A DNA stretch of 64,000 bases, from positions 46,082 through 110,081 of IMG/VR virus record IMGVR_UViG_3300033233_000015. One strand, written 5' to 3'. The DNA is from a virus. Below, piece after piece: positions 6,986 to 45,862 of this stretch (position 1 is its first letter; each line of letters starts with the position of its first letter). The notes beneath the pieces were generated by a model. That model did not search any database and was not told where the DNA came from. It was given only the letters and a program-made list of their open reading frames with translations. A program made the position numbers and the translations under genes.

Positions 6986-7195
6986 ATGACGCCTAGAGAA
7001 TTGGGTGGAGCAATCACGCGCGCGGAGGACGTGTTCGTTTGGGTGGGGTACACCCGAGACAAGGGGGTGTTCATTCGCGTCCCGAAGCCGGCGGCGAGAG
7101 AGATTGTGGACGAGGCGAAAGCCGAAGAGGTGACGAACGTCGAGGCGCACGCCTCCGGCAACGAAGTCTTCATTGGCCATTCGCCGCCGTACTGA
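6986..7195 (+). CDS. hypothetical protein
   Basis: SD, coupled to the next gene. Confidence 0.55.
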   Translation: MTPRELGGAITRAEDVFVWVGYTRDKGVFIRVPKPAAREIVDEAKAEEVTNVEAHASGNEVFIGHSPPY

Positions 7196-8082
7196 TGCTC
7201 TCCCTACCTTCCGAACTCGCAGGTCTTCCGCTCGTCGCGTCCGTGAGCGGAGGCAAGGATTCGACGGCGCTCATCCTCGCGCTGCTCGAGGCGGGGCTCG
7301 TGACGCGCTACGTCTTCGCCGACACGGGATGGGAAGCGCCAGAGACGTACACGTACCTCGACACGCTCCGCACGAAGCTCGGGATCGTGATCGACGTAGT
7401 GGGCGTGCCAGGAGGGATGCTCGCCATCGCGACGAAGAAGGCGGGCTTCCCTCAGCGCAAGGGGCGGTGGTGCACCGAGAAGCTCAAGATGATTCCGATC
7501 CGCGAATACCACCGCGCGATCGGCGCCGACGTCGTCAACGTGGTCGGCGTCCGCGCGGAAGAGAGCGCGAAGCGGGCGGCGATGTCGGAACTCGAGGACG
7601 ACGCCGAATGGGGCGGGTGGGTGTGGAGACCGCTGCTTCGATGGAGCGTCGCGGAGGTGCTGGCGATCCACCATCGACACGGCGTCCCCGTGAACCCGCT
7701 CTACAAGCGCGGTCACAACCGCGTCGGCTGCTACCCGTGCATCAACGCCGACAAGGAAGAGATCCGCCTCGTCGCCGAACACTCGCCCGAGCGCATCGAC
7801 GAGATTCGGGCGCACGAGCTGGCGCAGAGCACCGAGCGCGCGCGCCGCAACACGAGCGGCGAAGGAAACTTCAAGCATCTGACCTCGACGTACTTCAGTG
7901 CGCGTGAGTCGCTCGGACCGCGCGGCATCGACGAGGTCGTGGAGTGGTCGCGCACCGACCACGGCGGCAAGCAGCTGCCGCTCCTCGCTTCCGTTCCGAG
8001 CGGCGGATGTATGCGATGGGGTCTCTGCGAACCGCCGACGACGGAAGGAGAAGGAGAAGACGATGCAGCACAAGGAAATTGA
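7195..8082 (+). CDS. PAPS-reductase (CysH/DndC-like) PP-loop family protein
   Basis: SVSGGKDS PP-loop, ADTGWE, RWCTEKLK, GVRAEESAKR, NPLY, RVGCYPC. Confidence 0.9.
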   Translation: MLSLPSELAGLPLVASVSGGKDSTALILALLEAGLVTRYVFADTGWEAPETYTYLDTLRTKLGIVIDVVGVPGGMLAIATKKAGFPQRKGRWCTEKLKMIPIREYHRAIGADVVNVVGVRAEESAKRAAMSELEDDAEWGGWVWRPLLRWSVAEVLAIHHRHGVPVNPLYKRGHNRVGCYPCINADKEEIRLVAEHSPERIDEIRAHELAQSTERARRNTSGEGNFKHLTSTYFSARESLGPRGIDEVVEWSRTDHGGKQLPLLASVPSGGCMRWGLCEPPTTEGEGEDDAAQGN

Positions 8083-12550: not shown

Positions 12551-12903
12551 ACATCGAGCTCGATCCGCAAGCCAACATCATCATCGCCCGCCTCATCGAC
12601 ATGCAGCGCACCGAGAGCGGCATCATCATGCCCGACACGCAGATCAAGGGCGTCACCGTCTTCGCGCTCGTCGAGCGAATCGGTCCCGACGTCAAGCGAT
12701 GCAAGCCCGGCGATGTCATCCTTCCTCGAGCGGTGGAGCACTGCTGGCTTCGGGGTGGTACATTCCATCGCGCGCTCATTCAGGACGAGCACGTCGTCGC
12801 GATCGTCAAGAACGGCTTCAACCGCGAGCACATGAAGTTCGTGGACGAGCGCATCGCGGCGGGCGACGACGGCGGTGGTAAAGAAAAGAGGCTGGTCACG
12901 TGA
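12547..12903 (+). CDS. groES: GroES (Cpn10)-like co-chaperonin
   Basis: LDP...RTESGIIMPD mobile loop, VERIGPDV..CKPGDVI. Confidence 0.75.
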   Translation: MNIELDPQANIIIARLIDMQRTESGIIMPDTQIKGVTVFALVERIGPDVKRCKPGDVILPRAVEHCWLRGGTFHRALIQDEHVVAIVKNGFNREHMKFVDERIAAGDDGGGKEKRLVT

Positions 12904-14042
12904 AACTCGAAGCGGTGTACGAACGTCGCAGAGAAGTTCGCCGGCCACGCCGCGCAGCGTCGCCGTGCGGATGTGGATGCGCAGCGTCACCGCGAGGAGT
13001 CGTTCCGCCGCCAGCGCCGCGCGCGCGCGAGGTCCGACGAGAGGTTCGCGATTTCGGTTCGATGCTCGACGCGCTCGAGGCTGCGAAGGCTCAGGGCGCG
13101 ACACATGCGCTGCAGAGCGGATACGCCGTCTACTTCCCGATCTCCGCTGCGGCGGGGTACGACCACTGCGCCATCTATCAGAGACTCGGCAAGTGGCACA
13201 TCGAAGCGCCAGGCAAGAAGAGCAGAGGTCCGCTTCCCACGCTTGCGGTCCCGATCGGTGATCTGATCTTCTCTCTTCAAGGGCGCGGCGCGAGAGAGGC
13301 CGATCCGCCAGGCGGTCCAGTTCTGCGAGTCGGATCGACCATCGTTCTGCCCGCTGGACATCGCGTCGGTATGGGTCGTCTTCGCAAGGACACGACGGTT
13401 CGGATCGATCGAATCGAGAACGACTCCGAGGGAGCCCCGATCTACGGGTTCTCTTGGATGGATGAGAGAGGCAAGGCCCGAAGCGGGTGGCTCTCGCAGA
13501 GCGAAGCGCTTCAATACGTTCGACGTGGCGGTTTCTCTCACGAGTCACCCTCGCGCGAGATCGAGTCGGAGTGCCGTCCGTACCTGAAGATCGAGCGCGA
13601 CGAGAAGCGTTTCCGTGCGTGCCAAGCGATCGCCGATCGCATCGGGCCAATCGACTCGACCGAGAAGTCGTACGAGGTGCTTCGGCAGGCGGTTGGTCAC
13701 GAACTCGCCGAGCGGTTCGGTGTGATGACGATGGACACGCACTTGAAGCTCCGCGACATCGCCGAGACCGGGGCAGGCGAGACGGACGCCGTGATGGCGC
13801 CGAAGGTGCCGACGCTTCAGGCCGCTCTCCTCTCGTCGCCGACGTACGCGATCATCTATCACGTGCATCCCGCCGCGAGCGAGAGGCCGAGCGATGCGGA
13901 TGTCGAAGTGACCAAGGACTTCGCGAAAGCGTTCGCGGAGGTCGGTGTGCCGCTACTCGATCACATCATCATCTCGACGGGATCGAAGAAGGGGCACTAC
14001 TCGTTCGCCGAGTCGAAACCGAAGACGCTTCAAGTGGAGTGA
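12900..14042 (+). CDS. Multidomain protein with C-terminal RadC-like JAB domain
   Basis: ERFGV...IIYHVHP...PSDAD...LLDHIII. Confidence 0.8.
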   Translation: MKLEAVYERRREVRRPRRAASPCGCGCAASPRGVVPPPAPRAREVRREVRDFGSMLDALEAAKAQGATHALQSGYAVYFPISAAAGYDHCAIYQRLGKWHIEAPGKKSRGPLPTLAVPIGDLIFSLQGRGAREADPPGGPVLRVGSTIVLPAGHRVGMGRLRKDTTVRIDRIENDSEGAPIYGFSWMDERGKARSGWLSQSEALQYVRRGGFSHESPSREIESECRPYLKIERDEKRFRACQAIADRIGPIDSTEKSYEVLRQAVGHELAERFGVMTMDTHLKLRDIAETGAGETDAVMAPKVPTLQAALLSSPTYAIIYHVHPAASERPSDADVEVTKDFAKAFAEVGVPLLDHIIISTGSKKGHYSFAESKPKTLQVE

Positions 14043-19877: not shown

Positions 19878-20537
19878 ATGATCGAGAAGCCCGTACCTGG
19901 CGTCCTCGCGAGACCTCACCCCGGCGGCAAACGCGGAGCGATGATCTCGCTCGACGAGACCGCGAAAGGCGCGTGGCGCGATCGGATGTCGCCGCGGCTT
20001 CGCGCGTGGGCTACGCAGCAGCTCGACAAGTGTGGCCGTCCCACGGGGAAACGCGCACGCGTGCAGTGCCTCCTCGACGCCTTCCGCAAGAAGGTGCCCT
20101 ATCTGGCCGATCCGAAGTGGGGTGAGTTCATCGCGAGCTCCGACCAGCTTCTCTGCGTGGACGAAGACAAGAACCTCTGCTTCATCGGCGCCGACTGCGA
20201 AGAGCACGCTCGAGCGATGGCGGCCCTCTGTCTCTGCATCGGGATTGACGCGATGATCGTGGGCCAGTCGTCACGAGATCCCGCCGACGTCCCCACGCAC
20301 GTCTACTTCGCGTTCAAAGACGATCTCGATTCGTGGGTCCGAGGCGACTCGACGACGACGTATCCGGTGGGCAGGGTCGCTCCGTACCTTCGCGAGTGGT
20401 GGGTCGATCCGTCCGAGGGTGTCGCTGAGGCGGGGCTCGGCGACATCGTCGTGATGGGCGCCACGGATGGTTTGCAGGATGCACCTAAAAATGGTGCGGT
20501 CTACACGGGTCGATACGCGGGGCTGTTCTCGAAATGA
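19878..20537 (+). CDS. Transglutaminase-like cysteine protease (candidate maturation protease)
   Basis: GADCEEHA...THVY...WVRGDST, Cys-His-Asp in transglutaminase order. Confidence 0.7.
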   Translation: MIEKPVPGVLARPHPGGKRGAMISLDETAKGAWRDRMSPRLRAWATQQLDKCGRPTGKRARVQCLLDAFRKKVPYLADPKWGEFIASSDQLLCVDEDKNLCFIGADCEEHARAMAALCLCIGIDAMIVGQSSRDPADVPTHVYFAFKDDLDSWVRGDSTTTYPVGRVAPYLREWWVDPSEGVAEAGLGDIVVMGATDGLQDAPKNGAVYTGRYAGLFSK

Positions 20538-20968
20538 GCCGTTCGCGGCGAAGAGTGAAAATTCTCGGTGACGACGTCGCTCTGTCGATTGTCGATCGTG
20601 AGCCGTTGGTGTTCCCTAAGGATCACGTACTCATCTTCGATCCGAGTGGGCGATCGATCGGGAAATGCTGCCTCGTCATCGGCCCCGCGCGCTTCACCAA
20701 CGATCCGATTTCTAATTTTTCCAAATTCGATCGCGGTTGGTACGGCGACGACTACGAACGTCGATTGGCTTTCGTTGACGTTCCCGAAGATCACTGGCAC
20801 TCTTTCGATCGCGTGGACGAGATCACCTACTTCCGATACGGAGAGCTCGAGGGAGATTTCACGCATCCCTTCCGCGAACCGCAGCAGCTCTTGAAGAGCA
20901 GGAAGTGGCACATGCTCGTCCTCTCGTCCGATTGCAGAATCACTCGTCGCGGGATCGAGGAACCGTGA
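20534..20968 (+). CDS. hypothetical protein
   Basis: ATGA coupling. Confidence 0.65.
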   Translation: MSRSRRRVKILGDDVALSIVDREPLVFPKDHVLIFDPSGRSIGKCCLVIGPARFTNDPISNFSKFDRGWYGDDYERRLAFVDVPEDHWHSFDRVDEITYFRYGELEGDFTHPFREPQQLLKSRKWHMLVLSSDCRITRRGIEEP

Positions 20969-22387
20969 ATGGCGTCCTACGCGGATTGGCTCTCAGAGAT
21001 GTCTCGACGGCGACCTCGCCGTCGTCGCGCTCGACGATCCGCCGCGCCCGTCGCCTCTTCCCGATCCTCTACATCCCGAACGTCGCCGAAGCGTCCTGCG
21101 AAAAAAAAGAAGACCAAGCAAACCGCCGGCTCCGGCGGACGTAAAACGAAACAAGGAGTGACCATGGCCCGTCGCCGTCGCCGAAAGCACGCCAAGAGCC
21201 CCGTCGCAGAGACCCGTCGTCGTCGCCGGCGAGCCGCAGCCCCGAAACGTCGTCGCCGTCGGGCGCGAGAAGCGGCGGTGGCGCAAGCTCCGCGTCGGCG
21301 TCGTCGCGCGCGTCGTCGCGCGGCACGGTCGTGGTTCGGCAACGCCCCCGGACATCGTCGAGCCGCGAAGAAGGGCTGGCGTAAGAAACGCAGCAGCGGT
21401 CGTCGGCGTCGAAGCCGCGAGGTGAGCGAGGCTCCGCGCCGCCGCCGCCCGAGCCGTCGTCGGGGTCGTCACTACCGAGAGGCCGCGCACGAGGCGCGTC
21501 GCGGCGGGTACTCCCGACGTCGGCGCCACGCGCGCAACAACCCGGCGATGAACGGAGGCGAGCTCGCCATCGCGTTCATCGCGGGCGGTCTCGGCTTCAC
21601 GCTCGCCGACTTCGCCGATCGGTACTTCGCCACGTACGATCCGTCGGCGACGGGCGAACTGCCGAAGGACAAGTTCACGGGCGGCAACGGCACGATGGCG
21701 AACACGCTCAACATCGCCGCGCCGCCAGGCTTCCTTCGAATCGGCGTCGGCGTCGCGCTGACGGCTCTTCCGGGGGTCGGCGCGTACCTCGTCAAGAACT
21801 CGATGGCGAAGGCCGCGCTCCACGGCATGATGATCGGCGCGGGCATCAAGCTCTTCTCGACGCTCTTCAATGCGTTCGTGATGGGCAACCTGCTCAAGCC
21901 GGGACCGCAGGACGATCCGAAGAAGTCGCTCGGAGCGCGCCTCTACCCGGCCGAGATCACCGCGGCGCAGAACATGTCGAACAGCCCCGCGACGATGGCC
22001 TCGCCGTTCAACCCCGGCCTCGCGGCTCGTCCTCAGCAACGCGACGTCGGACCCTTCGCACTCGCGCAGGATCCGAGCGCGTTCGCTCCCGCACCGAGCG
22101 CGCCGCCCGTGAACGTCGCGCCGAGCCCTCCGCCCGTGAACGTGGACAGACCGCCATCGAACGGCGGCGGTCCGCCCGTGAACGTGGACAGACCGCCATC
22201 GAACGGCGGCGGTCCGCCCGTCGTCATGAGCCCGCCCATGGGTCCGCCGCCCTCGAGCGGACCGCCCGCGCGATCGGGCGGATCCTGCCCCGCCTGCAAA
22301 GGCGAGAGCGGGGCGTGCGGCTGCCTCGGATCGCAACCTCAAGCGCAGACGAACTACGCCTACCTCGGCGTCATCAACGAATCGTGA
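20969..22387 (+). CDS. Arg-rich core-like protein fused to a membrane domain
   Basis: Long poly-Arg N-terminal region, then hydrophobic helices and a Pro-rich tail; alternative start at 21164 with AAGGAG SD. Confidence 0.75.
   Translation: MASYADWLSEMSRRRPRRRRARRSAAPVASSRSSTSRTSPKRPAKKKKTKQTAGSGGRKTKQGVTMARRRRRKHAKSPVAETRRRRRRAAAPKRRRRRAREAAVAQAPRRRRRARRRAARSWFGNAPGHRRAAKKGWRKKRSSGRRRRSREVSEAPRRRRPSRRRGRHYREAAHEARRGGYSRRRRHARNNPAMNGGELAIAFIAGGLGFTLADFADRYFATYDPSATGELPKDKFTGGNGTMANTLNIAAPPGFLRIGVGVALTALPGVGAYLVKNSMAKAALHGMMIGAGIKLFSTLFNAFVMGNLLKPGPQDDPKKSLGARLYPAEITAAQNMSNSPATMASPFNPGLAARPQQRDVGPFALAQDPSAFAPAPSAPPVNVAPSPPPVNVDRPPSNGGGPPVNVDRPPSNGGGPPVVMSPPMGPPPSSGPPARSGGSCPACKGESGACGCLGSQPQAQTNYAYLGVINES
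22130..22213 (+). repeat. Perfect 42-bp tandem duplication (PPVNVDRPPSNGGG x2)
   Basis: 22130-22171 is identical to 22172-22213. Confidence 0.9.
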
Positions 22388-22443
22388 TGGAGAGAGCCTG
22401 CGGCTGACCGACTGAAACGGCAGGCTCGGAAAGAAAGACGACC

Positions 22444-23694
22444 ATGGAAGCTCAAGTGAAGAAGTCGATGACGAAAGCTCGGTTCGGCCAGGACCGCGAT
22501 CGGGTGAAGCGCGTTCCCTTCGGTCTCGGCGACGCGCCAAGCTCCGACGCGCTCAACAAGACGCTCCGTTGCTCCTTCGGCAACGTGCCCGTCATCGAGG
22601 AGGTCGTTTGGACGATTCCTCTCCCGCTCTCCGAAGCGGAAGCGCAGAGCACGTTCGGCGACATCATCAACGTGCTCACCTCGCAGGCGAACGTGCCGGG
22701 TGTCGCGTCGATCGACTCGACGTTCCTGCTCAACGGCATCCTGCAGACGGACCTCTACACGCAGGGCGTCGGCGTGCACGTCTTCTGCGAGCCGATGCAG
22801 CTCGCGACGATCGGCAACGCTTGGACGTCGCCGCCCACGGCCGGCGCCGTTCCGCCGCCGTCCCCCGACGTCTTCACGCTGAACGATGTCGCCGGCGGCG
22901 CGCTCGGTCTCGCGCAAGGCACCACGATGGTGCCCGCCGCCTTCGATTGGGGCGGCGAGGTGTGGCGCGCGGGCTGGAACTTCATCAACGCGTACCAGTT
23001 CCAGTGGAAGACGAGCCAGCGCGAGCTCGTCTTGAACGAGCTGGCGGCCGACGTCTCGTACTTCGGCAGCTTCGCGGACGCGGAGGCGGCGGGCACCAGC
23101 GAGTTCCCGATCGCGGAGCTCGTCGCGCGCACGAACGCCGTCTACCGCTCGAAGGCGTCGGGGTTCACCTTCCTCCCCGTGAACTTCCGCCGCGTCGGAA
23201 GCGTCACGGTGGCGGCGGCCAACGTCGGCATCTTCCACCCGACGCGCGACTTCGACCTCGCGCCCGTCACCTGGGGCGGTCTCCGCTGGCAGGGGTACGG
23301 CTGCAAGGGTCAGATGTACCGGATGATCGAGAACCCGTGCTTCCTCGAGCGCGCGATTCCGATCGGCATGCAGTTCATCGTGCAGGATCCGGTGCACCAG
23401 GCCGCGATGCTCGAAGCGCTCACGATGGACAACTCGCTGCTCGGGACGAACATCAGCCCCGACACGAACATCAGCTGCGCGAACACGACGACGGGCGCGA
23501 ACGTCATGCTCGAGCAGACGCTCGACTCGCCGCCCGTGAACACGCCGCAGCAGGTGACGCTCTGCCGTCAGGTCTTCAAGGGCGGCATCCTCAAGATCGG
23601 CATCAAGCTCAAGGGGTGGGAGTTCCCCGCTCCGTGGCGTCTCTGGTGCCAGCAGAACGCGCCGCAGCTCGTCTCCTGCCCCGCGCAGAGCTGA
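22444..23694 (+). CDS. Putative major capsid protein
   Basis: 416 aa, beta-rich, very strong codon bias, follows the core-like gene, followed by a strong hairpin; fold not verified. Confidence 0.6.
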   Translation: MEAQVKKSMTKARFGQDRDRVKRVPFGLGDAPSSDALNKTLRCSFGNVPVIEEVVWTIPLPLSEAEAQSTFGDIINVLTSQANVPGVASIDSTFLLNGILQTDLYTQGVGVHVFCEPMQLATIGNAWTSPPTAGAVPPPSPDVFTLNDVAGGALGLAQGTTMVPAAFDWGGEVWRAGWNFINAYQFQWKTSQRELVLNELAADVSYFGSFADAEAAGTSEFPIAELVARTNAVYRSKASGFTFLPVNFRRVGSVTVAAANVGIFHPTRDFDLAPVTWGGLRWQGYGCKGQMYRMIENPCFLERAIPIGMQFIVQDPVHQAAMLEALTMDNSLLGTNISPDTNISCANTTTGANVMLEQTLDSPPVNTPQQVTLCRQVFKGGILKIGIKLKGWEFPAPWRLWCQQNAPQLVSCPAQS

Positions 23695-23715
23695 GCCAAG
23701 CAGCGTGACTAGACC

Positions 23716-23751
23716 GCGACGGGCGGCGCGGATTTCTGCGCCGCCCGTTGC
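23716..23751 (+). terminator. GC-rich hairpin after the capsid candidate (attenuator/terminator)
   Basis: GCGACGGGCGGCGCGG-ATTTC-TGCGCCGCCCGTTGC, weak U tail. Confidence 0.65.
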
Positions 23752-23768
23752 CGTTTCAGGAGAGCCCG

Positions 23769-24455
23769 ATGCTGCCGCGTGACCTCCAGATAAAGAATCT
23801 CGCTTGGATCTCCCCCAAGATCGCCTACGGTCTCGTGGCGCAGGTTCCCCGTGTGCCGTTCGTCGGTCCCATCACGACGAACCCCGGCGTTCCGTCGCCC
23901 GTCGTACCGATTCAGTTCACCGCGAACTGGCTCGCTCCGCCCGCGCTGCCTCCGGGCAATCCGCCGAACAACATCGGCATCAACCCGATCATCCAAGGCA
24001 CGCTTCAGAACAACGTGACGCAGGACACGCTGATCGAGCGCATCGTGTACTCGCTCTGGCAACCGAACGCGTTCTCGACGCCGCCGTCTCCGTTCCAGAC
24101 GCTATACCTGTCGCAGCTCAAGAGCTCCACGGGCGTCGATGTCCTGCTCGATGTCTACGGAAGCCCGAAGTACCGCGTGTGCGACTTCTTGCCGCTCGAG
24201 AACCTCGCTGACGTGCTCGCCGTCACGTGGCCCAACGGATGGCCGCTGCGCAAGCAGGAGAACGTCAAAGTGCAGGCCGTGCTCACCAGACCGCAGCCCG
24301 GAACGGTCGAAGCCCCCGTCGGCATCCCGTACTTCGTGAACATGGCGCTCGTCGGATGGCAGTTCGTCGGGAAGGAGATCGACGACATGTCCGACGACGA
24401 GGCGCGTCGGCGTCTCAAAGCGATGGGGATCGAAGTCCCTGAGGTGCCGCGATGA
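23769..24455 (+). CDS. Putative capsid protein, paralog A
   Basis: AGGAG SD; alignable end to end with 24452..25075. Confidence 0.65.
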   Translation: MLPRDLQIKNLAWISPKIAYGLVAQVPRVPFVGPITTNPGVPSPVVPIQFTANWLAPPALPPGNPPNNIGINPIIQGTLQNNVTQDTLIERIVYSLWQPNAFSTPPSPFQTLYLSQLKSSTGVDVLLDVYGSPKYRVCDFLPLENLADVLAVTWPNGWPLRKQENVKVQAVLTRPQPGTVEAPVGIPYFVNMALVGWQFVGKEIDDMSDDEARRRLKAMGIEVPEVPR

Positions 24456-25075
24456 TCGACCGCGACTACAACGTGAAGAACTTGGCGCTCTACGCGCCGC
24501 GCGTCGCGTGGGCGATGATCGCGGGCATTCCGCGCGTCGCGTTCGCGGTGGACGTGCCGATTCAGTTCTCGTCGGCGACCGTCAACGCTCCCCCCGTCGT
24601 CGGGAGCTTTCAGAACTCGCTCACGCAGGACACCGTCATCGAACGTGTCTCGTTCTCGCTCTTCCAGCAGAACACGTTTCCGGGCTCTCCCTTCCAGACG
24701 CTCTACTTCGCGATGGCGAAGGCGATCAGTGGCGTCGGCGTGCAGATGAGCGTCTACGGGGGGCCGAAGTACAACGTGAACGACACGTTCACGGCGCTAG
24801 AGAACATGGCCGACGTGCTCGCGATCACGTGGCCGAGCGGATGGCCGCTCTACAAGGGCAGCAACGTCAAGGTGACGGCGGCGCTCCTCCAGACGCCGTT
24901 CTCGACGCCGTACGACGTGAACCTCACGTTCCTTGGCTGGCAGTTTCTCGACGCCGAGCTCGACGCGATGAGCGACTCGGAAGCTCGTCGTCGTTTGCGG
25001 GCGCTCGGACTCGAGTCACCCGATCTCGCATCGCTCATCGGATCAGGGGGCGCGACGGCGCCACACAAGGAGTGA
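24452..25075 (+). CDS. Putative capsid protein, paralog B
   Basis: Shares QNxxTQDTxIER, SPFQTLY, LENxADVLAxTWPxGWPL, GWQF, MSDxEARRRL with paralog A. Confidence 0.65.
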   Translation: MIDRDYNVKNLALYAPRVAWAMIAGIPRVAFAVDVPIQFSSATVNAPPVVGSFQNSLTQDTVIERVSFSLFQQNTFPGSPFQTLYFAMAKAISGVGVQMSVYGGPKYNVNDTFTALENMADVLAITWPSGWPLYKGSNVKVTAALLQTPFSTPYDVNLTFLGWQFLDAELDAMSDSEARRRLRALGLESPDLASLIGSGGATAPHKE

Positions 25076-42968: not shown

Positions 42969-43565
42969 TCACGCCACCTTCCTCTTGAGATCGTCGATGA
43001 ACGCCAGGAGATCGGGCGTCGCACGGAACCATTCGCCCCTGATGCGCGCGTGGGCGAAGCGCTTGTGCAGCGCGCTCTCTACTTCTCGGTTGCCCTCGAT
43101 GATTGCTAGCACCGACAGAAGATGCGGGGTGCCGACCACCATGGCTTTCACGCGCCTGTCGACGTTCTTCGCGGTGCCGATCTTGATCGCGTGCATGCCG
43201 CTCTCTTGAACGAAGTAGACCTTGTGAACGCCGAATGCCCGAAGCGTGAGCTGGCGACATGGCGCCACCGAAATCGGACGCGACCGAACCGAGCGCGAAT
43301 CGGTGCGCCCCGTGTTCGGATCAACCTCGTGAAGAAAGCACCAATCCCTCGCGCATTCGAAGACCGAGTCTTCGCGCGGTGACCAGAGTCCCCACGCGGG
43401 ATCCAGCCAGACCTGCCCCTGACGATCGCTGCCAATCGCAATTTGGCGACGCATCATTAGATCGTTGATGATGCTGACGCGCGCAGCGCAAGCGGCGACG
43501 GGACCACCGAGAAGGGCGGCTCGCTGCGCTTTGAGCCATGCGAGGGTCTTCGTTTCTTGATTCAC
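42969..43565 (-). CDS. T5orf172/GIY-YIG-like domain protein
   Basis: VYFVQ...IKIG...ESALHKRFAHARIRGEWF. Confidence 0.8.
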   Translation of the reverse strand: MNQETKTLAWLKAQRAALLGGPVAACAARVSIINDLMMRRQIAIGSDRQGQVWLDPAWGLWSPREDSVFECARDWCFLHEVDPNTGRTDSRSVRSRPISVAPCRQLTLRAFGVHKVYFVQESGMHAIKIGTAKNVDRRVKAMVVGTPHLLSVLAIIEGNREVESALHKRFAHARIRGEWFRATPDLLAFIDDLKRKVA

Positions 43566-44704
43566 CGAAAATCTCCTTGCAGCACCTTCAGCCAGTCGTC
43601 GAACGTACGCTCCGAGCTCTCAGCCTTCGGTGTCGCGGGTCGCGCGGGCCGCATCGCGAGCGCTTCGTCGATCGCGCCCTTCGCGACAGACTCTTCGACC
43701 AACTCCGCACGACGGATGTACCCCAACACCTCGCGCGCATTGCGATGCCCGGACGCTTCCATGATGTCGGGGATCTTGCGGCCCATCTTGTACATCGTGG
43801 TGATGAACCCGCTTCTCAGGGAGTGGCCCCCGAAGTCGCTTGGATCGAGGCTTGGATCGATCTTCGCGAGCTTCGCGACGTAGTGCTGGATGCGCAGCGA
43901 GACCCCTTTCGCCATCAGCGCCCCGTCCATGACGGCGAGTCCGTTGGGGGAGATGCCTCGGAAGACGGGTCCGCTCGAGATGTGCGAAGCCGAGAGCCAC
44001 GCGCGCAGCGCGCGCACGGGGCAGTAGCGCACGTCTTCACCGAGCGTGATGGGGACGTCGAGTCCCTTGCCCGTCTGATCGGCTTTGCTGCGCGGGATCT
44101 TCCACCGAAAGTGGCCGCCAGCCAGAGGCGCAAAGTGTTCGACGCGAGCAGCGACGATCTCGCTGCGGCGCCGACCACCCCCCTGCCATCCGACGAGGAG
44201 CATCGCGCGGTCGCGTACGCCGCGCAGATCGTCCTCTATCGCGTCGCACACGCGGAACAGCAGCGATTCCGCCGCGCCAAGGTCGCGCTTCTGCTTTTTC
44301 GGTCCCGTCCCCTTCTCCCGAGCGAGCGTGTCGCGATCGACAATGATAAGTGGATGATTCCAGACGCTTGCGCGCCCTGAGGTGATTTCGCTCGTACAGA
44401 TGGCCGCGAGAGCGCGCATGAGCGCACTGAACCCGAGCGGCCCCTTAGGTCGGCCGCTTGGGACATCGTCGGTGTGACGTCCCGAGTCGGCGAGCTCGCG
44501 CAGGTACAAGCGGACGAGCTTTGGTTCTACAGGCGCGGCTCGAGCCCCGTGGCGGGTGCACCAAGAGGCAAAGCAGGCCAATTCGAACTCGTACGCCCGC
44601 CGCGTGTTCGGCGGTACGGCCGCGTCCGCTGCTTTCTCCGCGCGCGCGTTGAGCGCAAGCAGCTCCGTGCGCGCGGTCTCGATGGCGACGGGCAATGTAG
44701 GCAT
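43562..44704 (-). CDS. Cre-like tyrosine recombinase
   Basis: NTRRAY N-terminal domain; RDRAMLL..RRSE, SKADQ, CPV, HSLRSG, GH, Y; start at 44704 or 44722. Confidence 0.9.
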   Translation of the reverse strand: MPTLPVAIETARTELLALNARAEKAADAAVPPNTRRAYEFELACFASWCTRHGARAAPVEPKLVRLYLRELADSGRHTDDVPSGRPKGPLGFSALMRALAAICTSEITSGRASVWNHPLIIVDRDTLAREKGTGPKKQKRDLGAAESLLFRVCDAIEDDLRGVRDRAMLLVGWQGGGRRRSEIVAARVEHFAPLAGGHFRWKIPRSKADQTGKGLDVPITLGEDVRYCPVRALRAWLSASHISSGPVFRGISPNGLAVMDGALMAKGVSLRIQHYVAKLAKIDPSLDPSDFGGHSLRSGFITTMYKMGRKIPDIMEASGHRNAREVLGYIRRAELVEESVAKGAIDEALAMRPARPATPKAESSERTFDDWLKVLQGDFR

Positions 44705-44727
44705 AGGTAGTAGAGAACGCATTGGCC

Positions 44728-44768
44728 GATAACGACACCTTATCACCCACGCTCTGGACTTGTCCAGA
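44728..44768. promoter_or_regulatory. Candidate recombination core site and accessory palindrome
   Basis: GATAA-N7-TTATC (44728-44744) and TCTGGAC-TT-GTCCAGA (44753-44768) immediately upstream of the recombinase. Confidence 0.5.
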
Positions 44769-45052
44769 AGTCGTCGATCGCGACGCGCGGCGCCGGCCGC
44801 GCGCGCGTCGAGTTCGCGAAATCGCGAAAATCGCGCTGCGCACCCATGTTTCCCCGCTGCGCGCGGCCTCTGCGCAGGGGGTTCCTGGGCGGTTCGCGCG
44901 GCGGGTACGCCCCCACCCACTGGATCGCGCCGTTCGTTACGATTTCGCTCGAAATTCGCTCCGCGTTCGCTCCCGACCGTGTAGCGCGTCGATTTTTTGC
45001 CCCGAGCGGCATCGATGGCTACGCTCTCCACCTTCAACGGAGGTCCGGTCCA

Positions 45053-45862
45053 ATGGCAACGACGCAAAAGTGGGTGCTCCTCAACATCGATGGCGTTCCG
45101 CTCGACCCGAGCGACGCGCAGAAGCTCGTCGACGCGCTCAACGAGGACAACGGCGAGTGCGGTCCGTTCGCTCAGGCGACAGGTCGATCGGCCAGCGTGC
45201 GACTCGGCGCGAGCTCCGACGATCGGCAGGTGGACGAGTACGCGATGAACATCCGCCACTCGATCCCTGAAGCGCCCGGCGCGCTCGCTTACCACTACGT
45301 CACCAACGGCGTCCCCGACATCGAGCTCGGATGGGACCTATTCGACGGCGTGATCGACGGCCCCGACCCGTTCAGCGTCGGCGTGGACCATGAGCTGAAA
45401 GAGGCTCTGCGCGATCCCGGTGCGAACGGGTGGAAGGACGGCGTCAACTCGAACGGCAAAGCGAGCGCCGACGAAGCCTGCGACAAGGTGCAGAACACCT
45501 TCCGCAAGGCGAGCAACGGCGTCACGCTGTCGAACTTCCTCCTCGAGTCGGCGTTCATTCCGGGAGCTGCCGCGCCGTACGACGCGCTCGGCGTGATGAC
45601 ATCGCAGGACGATCTCTCGAACGGCTACGACATCGAGGCCGACGTCGAGAACGTGACGCAGGTGCATAGCGACGCGGATACGGACGGATCACGGGCGCTG
45701 ATCGCGATCGAGAAGCACGCGACGAAGCGCAAGGTCACGATGCGCAACGCGACGAACCTCACACCGAAGCAGCTCAAGAGGAAGACGCACCCATGGAGCC
45801 GCGCGCACCGTCGCGGGTTTCGGCACTTTCACGAATCCGCCAGCGAAGGCGGTGAGGTGTGA
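45053..45862 (+). CDS. putative zincin-like metallopeptidase
   Basis: GGAGG SD; GALAYH...DHELKEALRDP...EACD...LSNF. Confidence 0.55.
   Translation: MATTQKWVLLNIDGVPLDPSDAQKLVDALNEDNGECGPFAQATGRSASVRLGASSDDRQVDEYAMNIRHSIPEAPGALAYHYVTNGVPDIELGWDLFDGVIDGPDPFSVGVDHELKEALRDPGANGWKDGVNSNGKASADEACDKVQNTFRKASNGVTLSNFLLESAFIPGAAAPYDALGVMTSQDDLSNGYDIEADVENVTQVHSDADTDGSRALIAIEKHATKRKVTMRNATNLTPKQLKRKTHPWSRAHRRGFRHFHESASEGGEV

Follow-up and report, generated by a model that had tools for sequence, protein, structure and literature searches.

A capsid-adjacent protein with a polybasic arm and a three-helix core in an apparently tailless lineage of soil bacterial viruses: a candidate genome-compacting virion component

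The DNA analysed here belongs to an uncultured soil bacterial virus represented by a 110-kb record, which is annotated as linear and has a completeness estimate of 100%, although genes could still be missing from it. ORF coordinates are given within a window of 64,000 nucleotides, the whole stretch of DNA under analysis. An earlier note on this DNA had described a gene at 20969-22387, and an ORF of 472 amino acids on the + strand was found exactly there. It is a genuine gene under selection along its whole length, and it encodes the only large polybasic protein among the 114 ORFs of the genome. The segments of this protein, together with the neighbouring genes, are listed in Table 1.

Table 1. 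Features of the polybasic protein gene and its surroundings (positions within the 64,000-nt window).
Feature	Coordinates	Strand	Description
Transglutaminase-like (papain-fold) protein	19878..20537	+	Pfam Transglut_core, E 1.1e-6, 29.4 bits (cut-off 23)
Upstream 144-aa gene	20534..20968	+	Conserved and abutting in the source subclade and L030 only
First start junction	20966..20971	+	TGA of the upstream 144-aa gene abuts the first ATG
Full ORF	20969..22387	+	472 aa: polybasic arm, three-helix core, Pro-rich tail, Cys-rich C-terminus
Polybasic arm, residues 1-193	20969..21547	+	64 Arg, 15 Lys, 8 Asp/Glu, net +71
Internal start	21153..21166	+	AAGGAG 21153-21158, 5-nt spacer, ATG for Met66 at 21164-21166
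Conserved motif within the arm, residues 121-141	21329..21391	+	Trp, Gly, His, then Ala-Ala-Lys-Lys-Gly-Trp, basic run
Arm-helix hinge, residues 187-197	21527..21559	+	His-Ala...Asn-Pro...Gly-Gly; contains Met194
Helix 1, residues 196-222	21554..21634	+	AlphaFold2 pLDDT 90-95; Kyte-Doolittle 1.52; 38% Gly/Ala/Ser across the family
Helix 2, residues 255-274	21731..21790	+	AlphaFold2; 5.9% charged, zero acidic residues across 34 homologs
Helix 3, residues 278-308	21800..21892	+	AlphaFold2; Wimley-White octanol sum -4.7 kcal/mol
Two short post-helix motifs	21935..22063	+	Residues 323-329 (Arg-Leu-Tyr-Pro..Glu) and 359-365 (Asp-Val-Gly-Pro-Phe)
42-bp tandem duplication	22129..22221	+	2.2 copies, 100% identity; duplicated 14-residue unit in the Pro-rich tail
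Cys-rich C-terminus, then terminal aromatic-Leu-Gly motif	22286..22384	+	C450, C452 and G454 invariant in alignment A1
Capsid candidate and two smaller paralogous beta-rich genes	22444..25075	+	Capsid candidate 416 aa, GC3 0.92

The gene lies in a long same-strand operon, between the transglutaminase-like gene and the capsid candidate. Its position directly upstream of the latter, already pointed out in the earlier note, was verified (57-nt gap), and the same order was found at every locus for which upstream sequence had been fetched (23 loci from IMG/VR and MAG contigs, with capsid candidates of 410-460 aa). The contigs hosting the family are viral and measure 60-125 kb. These data support a late/structural operon in which the gene keeps a constant place beside the capsid candidate. 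The GC3 of the helical part (0.91) and that of the capsid candidate gene are the top values of the genome. The best fold matches of the capsid candidate were the single jelly-roll capsid proteins of HCIV-1, SPV1 and P23-77 (VP16), with VIA-align Z scores of 4.5-4.8 that are below significance; its model had a pLDDT of 52.7 and Foldseek returned nothing at E≤0.001. The protein is considered a jelly-roll-like capsid candidate whose fold is weakly matched. No match to it was detected by tblastn against 50,697 phage records.

Two genes upstream of the polybasic protein gene, the transglutaminase-like protein is a candidate maturation protease. The intervening 144-aa gene product shares 31-46% identity with the copies of relatives (E 1e-19 to 1e-33), and no Pfam or PHROG family was found for it. 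At least 11 neighbouring genes encode strong single membrane anchors, and the wall-degrading domains CHAP, LysM and M23, with membrane anchors, are encoded in the same operon. Promoter and terminator scans around the gene gave results at chance level, and a hairpin between the gene and the capsid candidate gene was not significant (z = -1.7). No tRNA genes were found, and hence no viral tRNA-Arg.

The protein belongs to a lineage-specific family. A profile of its core finds 380 database clusters (50% identity) at E≤1e-3, of which 194 remain at E≤1e-10, and the combination of arm, helices and tail, present at more than 70 fetched loci and in these 380 clusters, is far above chance expectation. 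Over the whole protein, identity is 38-43% to 11 of 12 homologs and 34% to the twelfth. All five family traits are present in the source protein: the core, a polybasic region of at least 100 residues, the capsid-adjacent position, an internal ATG preceded by a Shine-Dalgarno (SD) sequence, and the Cys-Gly-Cys/aromatic-Leu-Gly end. No Pfam family (E≤0.1), including protamine families, and no PHROG family matched the protein or six of its relatives. Searches of PDB sequences returned nothing, whether the query was the profile of the family or the accessory domain, and a scan of viral contigs with the close relative P0003 was likewise empty. The core model had no match at E≤0.001 among viral predicted structures (Foldseek), and its best score in the ESM Atlas, 0.83, is at chance level. 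Literature searches turned up no account of the lineage and no phage core protein of protamine-like type; one myxobacterial virome preprint describes tailed phages only.

The N-terminal arm corresponds to the segment of about 190 residues in which Arg runs had previously been noticed; residues 1-193 indeed contain 64 Arg and 15 Lys, and the Asn-Asn-Pro that closes the segment lies at residues 190-192. Runs of 4-7 Arg are separated by short Ala/Pro/Ser spacers, and the 128 residues from 66 to 193 include 51 Arg (40%) and 23 Ala (18%). CGT accounts for 41% of the Arg codons of the arm, and AGR codons are absent. In relatives, the arm spans 190-390 residues with charges from +33 to +139. The near-invariant columns of the motif embedded in it are W122, G124, H129, A132, A133, K135 and G136 (alignment A1). 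The Asn-Pro of the hinge is kept in the source subclade and in the distant L031, while the other clade has a Gly run instead. A genome-wide Asn-Pro "processing code" was considered but is not supported here: 61 Asn-Pro dipeptides were counted where 44 would be expected, and the genome encodes no further large basic protein.

Translation of the Arg-rich segment, on which the earlier note had made its interpretation depend, could be disputed. The public gene call for the source contig (P0038, 279 aa) begins at Met194 and misses the arm, 70 of 128 representative database calls begin at or past the arm end, and GC3 across the arm is only 0.58-0.67, as would be expected if Met194 were the true start and the upstream frame an untranslated by-product of high G+C. 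Nevertheless, this reading is already contradicted and we find it scarcely credible. In more than 70 relatives with enough upstream DNA, a single open frame leads from the N-terminal motif through a basic region of 190-390 residues into the helices, and it stays open despite indels and large length changes that result in proteins of 463-1205 aa; the exception is L055, which has a helical protein without a fused arm. The dN/dS ratios, computed on the arm of two pairs of relatives, were below 1 only in the arm frame (0.59 for L020/L023 and 0.24 for L008/L014, vs 1.0-3.1 in the shifted frames). All 58 long database calls reaching upstream of the core are 29-48% Arg+Lys in that region, and in a pair of otherwise identical proteins one 39-residue in-frame block of the arm is present or absent. 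Conserved motifs inside the arm and at the N-terminus also argue against an untranslated arm, as do the absence of Met194 in close relatives (P0014, with Phe there, P0015, L042, L045 and L047) and the lack of an SD upstream of Met194. Frame conservation and dN/dS thus favour translation, and comparison among relatives indicates that the arm belongs to the protein product.

Both in-frame ATGs reported for the gene are present, at 20969 and 21164, as is the SD of the second one (AAGGAG, 21153-21158, 5 nt before the ATG). No SD was found at the first ATG and the stop codon of the preceding gene abuts it, so that initiation at 20969 is probably coupled to translation of the upstream 144-aa gene; the residues that follow correspond to the N-terminal motif conserved in the family. 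At the position aligned with Met66, an SD-like sequence occurs in 85% of 52 homologs vs 21% of 198 other internal Met residues (Mann-Whitney p = 5e-14). Here, this internal SD is composed of the minor codons AAA, CAA and GGA. The conservation of SD and ATG across the family makes the production of two nested isoforms, as proposed in the earlier note, plausible. The long form would start at 20969, coupled to the upstream gene, and in most relatives would carry an extra globular domain of about 75 residues, whereas the short form, starting at Met66 behind the strong SD, would probably be the bulk species.

Given an alignment of 34 sequences, AlphaFold2 predicts three long helices (pLDDT 90-95) packed as a compact bundle, and disorder for everything beyond approximately residue 340. 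The hydrophobic helices that had been claimed for this region are thus upheld as helices, but their hydrophobicity is only moderate: 19-residue Kyte-Doolittle values peak at 1.54 in this protein and at 1.4-1.97 in its relatives, with a usual threshold of 1.6, whereas the clear membrane anchors of neighbouring genes reach 1.8-2.5. Among the 34 homologs, charged residues represent 6-15% and Gly/Ala/Ser 34-40% of the helices. The Wimley-White sum is clearly below zero for helix 3 only, and the additive Hessa-scale sum is +3.9 kcal/mol vs -1.5 to +3 for adjacent clear anchors. By hydrophobicity scales, therefore, the helices are borderline candidates for spanning a membrane. With the core model as query, VIA-align retrieved generic helix bundles, mostly triplets of transmembrane helices, with a top Z of 8.8 that is not significant. 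By the positive-inside rule, a strongly basic arm is expected to remain cytoplasmic, and in PRD1-type assembly the cytoplasmic face of the membrane ends up facing the capsid and not the DNA. Placing the +71 arm on the cytoplasmic face consequently creates a topology that conflicts with a PRD1-type internal membrane.

Beyond the helices, the two short motifs contain the invariant columns R324, Y326, P327, E329, D359, V360, G361 and P362 (alignment A1). The Pro-rich character attributed to the tail is evident from the 35 Pro found in residues 311-472, and the exact 42-bp duplication reported within it was recovered by Tandem Repeats Finder. An otherwise 100% identical protein encoded on an independent 89,961-bp contig has one copy of this repeat fewer. 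Tail length differs three-fold among relatives, and both ends of the protein are conserved. The Cys-rich end is also as reported, with Cys440, Cys443, Cys450 and Cys452, and the Cys-Gly-Cys plus aromatic-Leu-Gly motif is kept in most of the 34 sequences of alignment A3. Complex prediction with the capsid candidate and the C-terminal 89 residues gave an uninformative score of 0.00.

Six-frame profile searches of the 110-kb record, which is possibly incomplete, detected no FtsK/HerA- or A32-type ATPase at E≤1. Similarly, terminase, portal and HK97 capsid profiles (PF03354, PF03237, PF05065 and PF04860) had no match at E≤1 in this record, and none of approximately 56 ORFs compared with Pfam matched a terminase, portal, HK97 capsid, FtsK or A32 family. 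Those P-loop proteins that did turn up are replication helicases, a primase-helicase and an AAA_24 protein. The lineage is taken to consist of large, apparently tailless bacterial viruses.

We propose, with an even chance of being correct in our judgement, that the gene encodes an abundant structural protein whose polycationic arm compacts the viral dsDNA while the helices anchor the arm on a hydrophobic layer. The arm would bind dsDNA electrostatically, neutralising and compacting the genome in the manner of protamines or adenovirus protein VII. The layer to which the helical domain would fix the arm would most simply be a membrane of the virion, and the tail with its conserved end would reach another virion component. 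The reading given in the earlier note, a DNA-condensing core protein tethering the genome to an internal membrane, is partly supported. By simple arithmetic, some 3,000-4,000 copies would be required to neutralise all of the roughly 220,000 phosphates in 110 kb of DNA, and partial neutralisation is therefore more likely.

A DNA-condensing core protein could also operate without a membrane, with helices that do not span a bilayer but form an oligomeric hydrophobic core shell or line the inner face of the capsid, and with no tether between arm and lipid. Helices below the standard transmembrane thresholds and packed in a compact, high-confidence AlphaFold2 bundle would fit such a protein, and the topological conflict with a PRD1-type membrane would disappear. 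We nevertheless deem it unlikely, given that 6-15% of charged residues is unusually low for a soluble bundle, that the nearest structural neighbours, although not significant, are mostly membrane helices, and that many membrane-anchored proteins are encoded nearby. Another function that appears improbable is that of a capsid-membrane cement or size-determining scaffold, in which the arm would bind anionic lipid or an acidic inner capsid and the tail would serve as spacer or ruler. An arm of 190-390 residues and +33 to +139 exceeds what binding to lipid or shell needs, and its composition fits nucleic-acid binders; moreover, the gain and loss of whole Arg blocks between identical strains would be intolerable for a precise ruler. 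In its favour are the capsid-facing arm expected from the positive-inside rule in a PRD1-like assembly, the three-fold variation of tail length between conserved protein ends, and the nested start upstream of a capsid gene, which recalls the protease/scaffold pairs of tailed phages, of which lambda C/Nu3 is one.

Alternatively, the protein might participate in genome delivery as a pilot or ejection protein, with the arm riding on the DNA, the helices opening the host envelope and condensation being secondary. The union of such an arm with marginally hydrophobic, Gly-zipper-like helices, in an operon that also encodes membrane-anchored CHAP, LysM and M23 wall-degrading domains, is compatible with this role. 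It is, however, quite unlikely in view of a codon bias at the level of the capsid gene, which suggests a bulk component and not one present in few copies, and of the lack of similarity to known pilot or ejection proteins. Composition by itself would even permit a non-structural polycation that, for instance, acts during infection by coating or silencing the nucleoid of the host or by binding RNA. Such a role is very improbable for a gene whose fixed place in a long late operon lies between that of a candidate maturation protease and that of the capsid candidate, and a conserved hydrophobic domain and terminal motif would be unexpected in a nucleoid binder.

If the arm does compact the genome from a hydrophobic layer, as we favour, DNA enclosure in these 60-125-kb viruses might even proceed without a motor, a speculative scenario that we consider rather unlikely. 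The arms would condense the replicated genome on the hydrophobic or membrane layer, after which the jelly-roll shell would close. Thousands of helix-anchored arms would take part, with the minor long isoform nucleating or positioning the process. The arm may be freed at the conserved hinge (Asn-Pro or Gly run) by the papain-fold enzyme or, alternatively, by Asn-dependent self-cleavage, a reaction known for reovirus mu1.

The analogy with adenovirus pVII drawn in the earlier note holds for composition and position but not for sequence or fold, in which no relationship was found. Adenovirus VII and pre-mu (pX) are likewise Arg/Ala-rich polycations, as residues 66-193 are here, and are also encoded by late structural genes; in the present operon, a jelly-roll-like capsid candidate follows the arm-encoding gene, and the second gene before it codes for a papain-fold enzyme. 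Both adenovirus proteins are matured by the adenovirus cysteine protease. The proposed job, to neutralise and compact a linear dsDNA genome, would also be shared. In contrast, sequence or profile similarity of VII/pre-mu to the source protein is absent, and adenovirus has no membrane, has small soluble core proteins and possesses a packaging ATPase, whereas the arm described here is fused to three hydrophobic helices and a long tail in a bacterial virus, in whose record no such ATPase was detected. Protamines, baculovirus P6.9 and white spot syndrome virus VP15 resemble the arm in their Arg runs with spacers and very high charge. However, with 50-80 residues they comprise nothing but the basic tract, while the family has arms of 190-390 residues with conserved non-basic motifs as one domain of a larger protein.

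Regarding the helical domain, the closest parallels are the PRD1 proteins P16, P20/P22, P7/P14, P18, P32 and P34 and the small membrane proteins of sphaerolipoviruses and PM2, which are likewise hydrophobic, helical and capsid-adjacent, and encoded in operons rich in membrane proteins. We know of no small membrane protein of internal-membrane phages with a polycationic domain. Furthermore, these phages pump their DNA by means of an FtsK/HerA-type ATPase, of which none was found in the source virus, and their genomes measure 10-31 kb, as opposed to 60-125 kb in the source lineage. The principle of basic arms on the inner wall that neutralise nucleic acid is shared with the Arg-rich arms of the capsid proteins of nodaviruses, sobemoviruses and circoviruses and with the C-terminal domain of hepatitis B core. 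Those arms have 20-50 residues, lie within the capsid protein and act on ssRNA or ssDNA genomes only a few kb long, whereas in the 110-kb dsDNA virus described here the arm belongs to a helix-anchored protein distinct from the capsid protein.

Protein-mediated DNA condensation is known from adenovirus, baculovirus and sperm. To our knowledge, no studied bacterial dsDNA virus uses a protamine-like protein for DNA compaction, and every well-studied one known to us pumps naked DNA into a preformed shell by an ATPase. As gene callers cut off the arm, both in the source contig and in the 70 of 128 calls mentioned above, the signature domain of the family does not show up in protein databases, and the lineage can easily be missed. 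If the proposed role is true, these viruses would harbour a bacterial counterpart of an adenovirus-type core in particles with jelly-roll capsids, and a conserved, highly expressed protamine-like protein next to the capsid gene, in viruses that are widespread in soil and peat and show no detectable motor, would open a second bacterial packaging strategy to direct testing.

All the elements that an earlier note had described at this locus (an Arg-rich segment, helices, a Pro-rich tail, a 42-bp repeat, a Cys-bearing end and two in-frame ATG codons) were found in an IMG/VR virus record of 110,081 bp and approximately 64% G+C, whose right-hand 64 kb constitute the window. They belong to a single 472-residue product, hereafter the arm protein, which carries four Cys close to its C-terminus and is encoded within a long plus-strand operon.

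Features of the arm-protein gene and its immediate neighbours (nucleotide positions within the window)
Feature	Position	Strand	Description
Full ORF	20969-22387	+	472 residues
Basic arm	residues 1-193 (20969-21547)	+	64 Arg, 15 Lys, 8 acidic; net +71; Asn-Asn-Pro at end
Apolar part	residues 194-310	+	Gly/Ala-rich
Tail	residues 311-472	+	35 Pro
Perfect 42-bp tandem duplication	22129-22221	+	inside tail-coding region
Second in-frame ATG (Met66)	21164	+	AAGGAG before ATG, 5-nt spacer
Upstream neighbours		+	anchored CHAP and LysM proteins, transglutaminase-like (papain-fold) protein, 144-aa protein
Downstream neighbours		+	416-aa capsid candidate, then two smaller paralogs

Gene callers remove the arm systematically: it is left out of 70 of 128 representative database calls, as well as of the public call for this contig (P0038), which comprises 279 aa and begins at Met194. 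Relatives were collected through the capsid-candidate gene (30 in IMG/VR, 44-69% identity, on contigs of up to 125 kb) and through a helical-core profile search, which added 74 loci from JGI metagenomes. Every locus with sufficient upstream DNA exhibited one open frame running from a conserved N-terminal motif through a basic region of 190-390 residues to the helices. Total protein length ranges from 463 to 1205 residues with the frame kept open, so that dozens of indels must all be multiples of three. In two pairs of relatives, Nei-Gojobori dN/dS of the basic region in the annotated frame was 0.59 (L020/L023, 82% DNA identity) and 0.24 (L008/L014), whereas the two shifted frames gave 1.0-3.1. 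A third pair, which was more divergent, had reached saturation. Conserved non-basic columns lie inside the arm (Trp122, Gly124, His129 and an Ala-Ala-Lys-Lys-Gly-Trp block), and all 58 database proteins whose call extends 100 residues or more beyond the N-terminal end of the core contain 29-48% Arg+Lys there, with a net charge of +33 to +139. Met194 is preceded by no Shine-Dalgarno (SD) sequence and is absent from the homologs P0014, P0015, L042, L045 and L047. On these four lines of sequence evidence (open frame, in-frame dN/dS below 1, conserved motifs and a poorly supported Met194), the arm is judged to be coding, and the translation of the Arg-rich segment on which the earlier note hinged is upheld.

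Arm length appears to vary through gain and loss of repeats, or through assembly collapse: two homologs (L036:8081-9838 and L039:879-2753) are identical apart from an in-frame block of Arg/Ala repeats, 39 residues long, in the arm. Arg codon usage in the arm (20969-21547) is also distinctive, with CGT at 41% vs 15% genome-wide and no AGA or AGG. CGT, CGC and CGA together make up 88% of arm Arg codons, a set that one tRNA-Arg with inosine could decode; no tRNA is encoded by the virus. The tail varies among relatives in length and composition around fixed short motifs (residues 323-329, 359-365 and a Cys/aromatic-Leu-Gly end). An independent contig of 89,961 bp encodes a protein that matches residues 194-472 at 100% identity but has one copy of the 14-residue unit; on this basis the 42-bp duplication is judged a recent polymorphism, at strain or possibly assembly level, and not a functional signal.

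Both proposed starts are present. The first ATG (20969) directly follows the stop codon TGA of the 144-aa gene and lacks an SD, and the residues following it match the family N-terminal motif, supporting it as a true start. The equivalent of Met66 was chosen in homologs by protein criteria alone, and an SD-like sequence (anti-SD duplex energy of -4 kcal/mol or lower) was found there in 85% of 52 non-identical homologs vs 21% of 198 other internal Mets (Mann-Whitney p = 5e-14); for most of the homologs lacking it, the selection rule had picked the wrong Met. In most relatives this Met follows Glu-Glu, and the codons of these two residues already resemble an SD. In the subclade of this genome the preceding residues differ and a purine-rich SD is retained, built in the window from minor codons (AAA, 18% of Lys; CAA, 25% of Gln; GGA, 19% of Gly codons), which points to selection on the SD as an RNA signal. 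Such conservation makes nested isoforms from 20969 and 21164 likely. The long form of most relatives, but not the short one, has an extra globular domain of about 75 residues, placed after the N-terminal motif and before the internal start (e.g., L005:6320-6550); it has no Pfam or PDB relative and is absent from this genome and from loci L008, L012 and L014. In the larger clade of relatives (alignment A4; L005:6110-6214 plus 14 further loci), there is a conserved TTGAC(G) box about 47 nt before the gene, and the start context GTGACATGGG is nearly invariant and devoid of an SD. These features suggest that the gene has a promoter of its own and that the leader of the long isoform is short and SD-less.

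The description of the apolar part as hydrophobic helices stands in part. AlphaFold2 (34 sequences) predicted three helices (196-222, 255-274 and 278-308; pLDDT 90-95) followed by a disordered tail, and throughout the family the helices contain 6-15% charged and 34-40% Gly/Ala/Ser residues, but their hydrophobicity is only intermediate (19-residue Kyte-Doolittle maximum of 1.54, 1.4-1.97 in relatives). Only helix 3 has a clearly negative Wimley-White octanol sum. An additive Hessa-scale sum gave +3.9 kcal/mol, compared with -1.5 to +3 for the unambiguous terminal anchors encoded by 11 or more neighbouring genes and 5-15 for soluble neighbours. The closest solved structures are mostly transmembrane helix triplets, at Z scores of 8.8 or less, which are not significant for helices. 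The helices may plausibly insert into a membrane.

Insertion raises a difficulty of topology. By the positive-inside rule a strongly positive segment is expected to stay cytoplasmic, and PRD1-like assembly leaves the cytoplasmic leaflet on the capsid side. The +71 arm should therefore remain cytoplasmic and, with three spanning helices, the tail should lie on the opposite face, so that one of three alternatives must hold: the membrane is acquired in a manner different from PRD1-like assembly, the helices do not span it, or the arm acts between shell and membrane.

Codon bias in the genome peaks at the gene of the capsid candidate (GC3 0.92). The model of this candidate is poor (pLDDT 52.7) and gave no Foldseek match; VIA-align ranked highest the single jelly-roll capsid proteins of HCIV-1, SPV1 and P23-77, which are internal-membrane viruses, at Z scores of only 4.5-4.8. 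Six-frame profile searches of the whole 110,081-bp record found no terminase, portal, HK97 capsid, FtsK or A32 ATPase, and its P-loop proteins are of replication type. A hairpin between the arm-protein and capsid genes (22394-22427; 8-bp G+C-rich stem, large loop, no T-run) has no significant folding energy (z = -1.7). Within 9419-41715, at least 11 structural-operon proteins, including CHAP, LysM/Ig-like and M23 wall-binding or wall-cutting proteins, possess one strongly hydrophobic segment each, at a terminus (Kyte-Doolittle 1.8-2.5). Further genes (12900-14042, 7039-8082 and G000:C1:21590-23902) encode a RadC-like JAB domain, located within the structural operon, a PAPS-reductase-like protein and a UvrD-type helicase split by an intein carrying an HNH endonuclease.

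Binning placed the contigs of two relatives in Polyangiaceae MAGs and that of one in a Binatia MAG, which gives a weak hint of the host. A 220-kb Polyangiaceae MAG contig matches the capsid candidate exactly over 15 residues at its very end (L037:10001-10045). This match might mark the border of an integrated copy, given the viral integrase gene (43562-45295), or reflect chimeric assembly. On one metagenome contig (L055:1718-3844), the helical-core protein begins at the helices without a fused arm. Immediately upstream, a different frame holds a separate 91-aa Arg-rich ORF, and the helical-core gene is followed by a homolog of 24452-25075, the 416-aa capsid-like gene being absent from between them. 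This contig may represent a smaller or rearranged relative, and its arrangement suggests that the arm and helical modules can be uncoupled.

The best-supported reading is that of a bulk structural polycation that would neutralise and compact the viral genome and that the helices would fix to a hydrophobic layer. The analysis shows the gene, the selection on it, its architecture, synteny, codon bias and nested start, whereas we infer that the protein binds DNA, resides in the virion and is anchored there, as well as any function of its tail. The arm protein belongs to an unnamed family of 380 clusters, and no published description of this kind of protein was found in the literature. It is not a member of the adenovirus VII/pre-mu or protamine families, since sequence tests did not place it there, but by analogy it resembles adenovirus VII and pre-mu and the protamines in composition and position.
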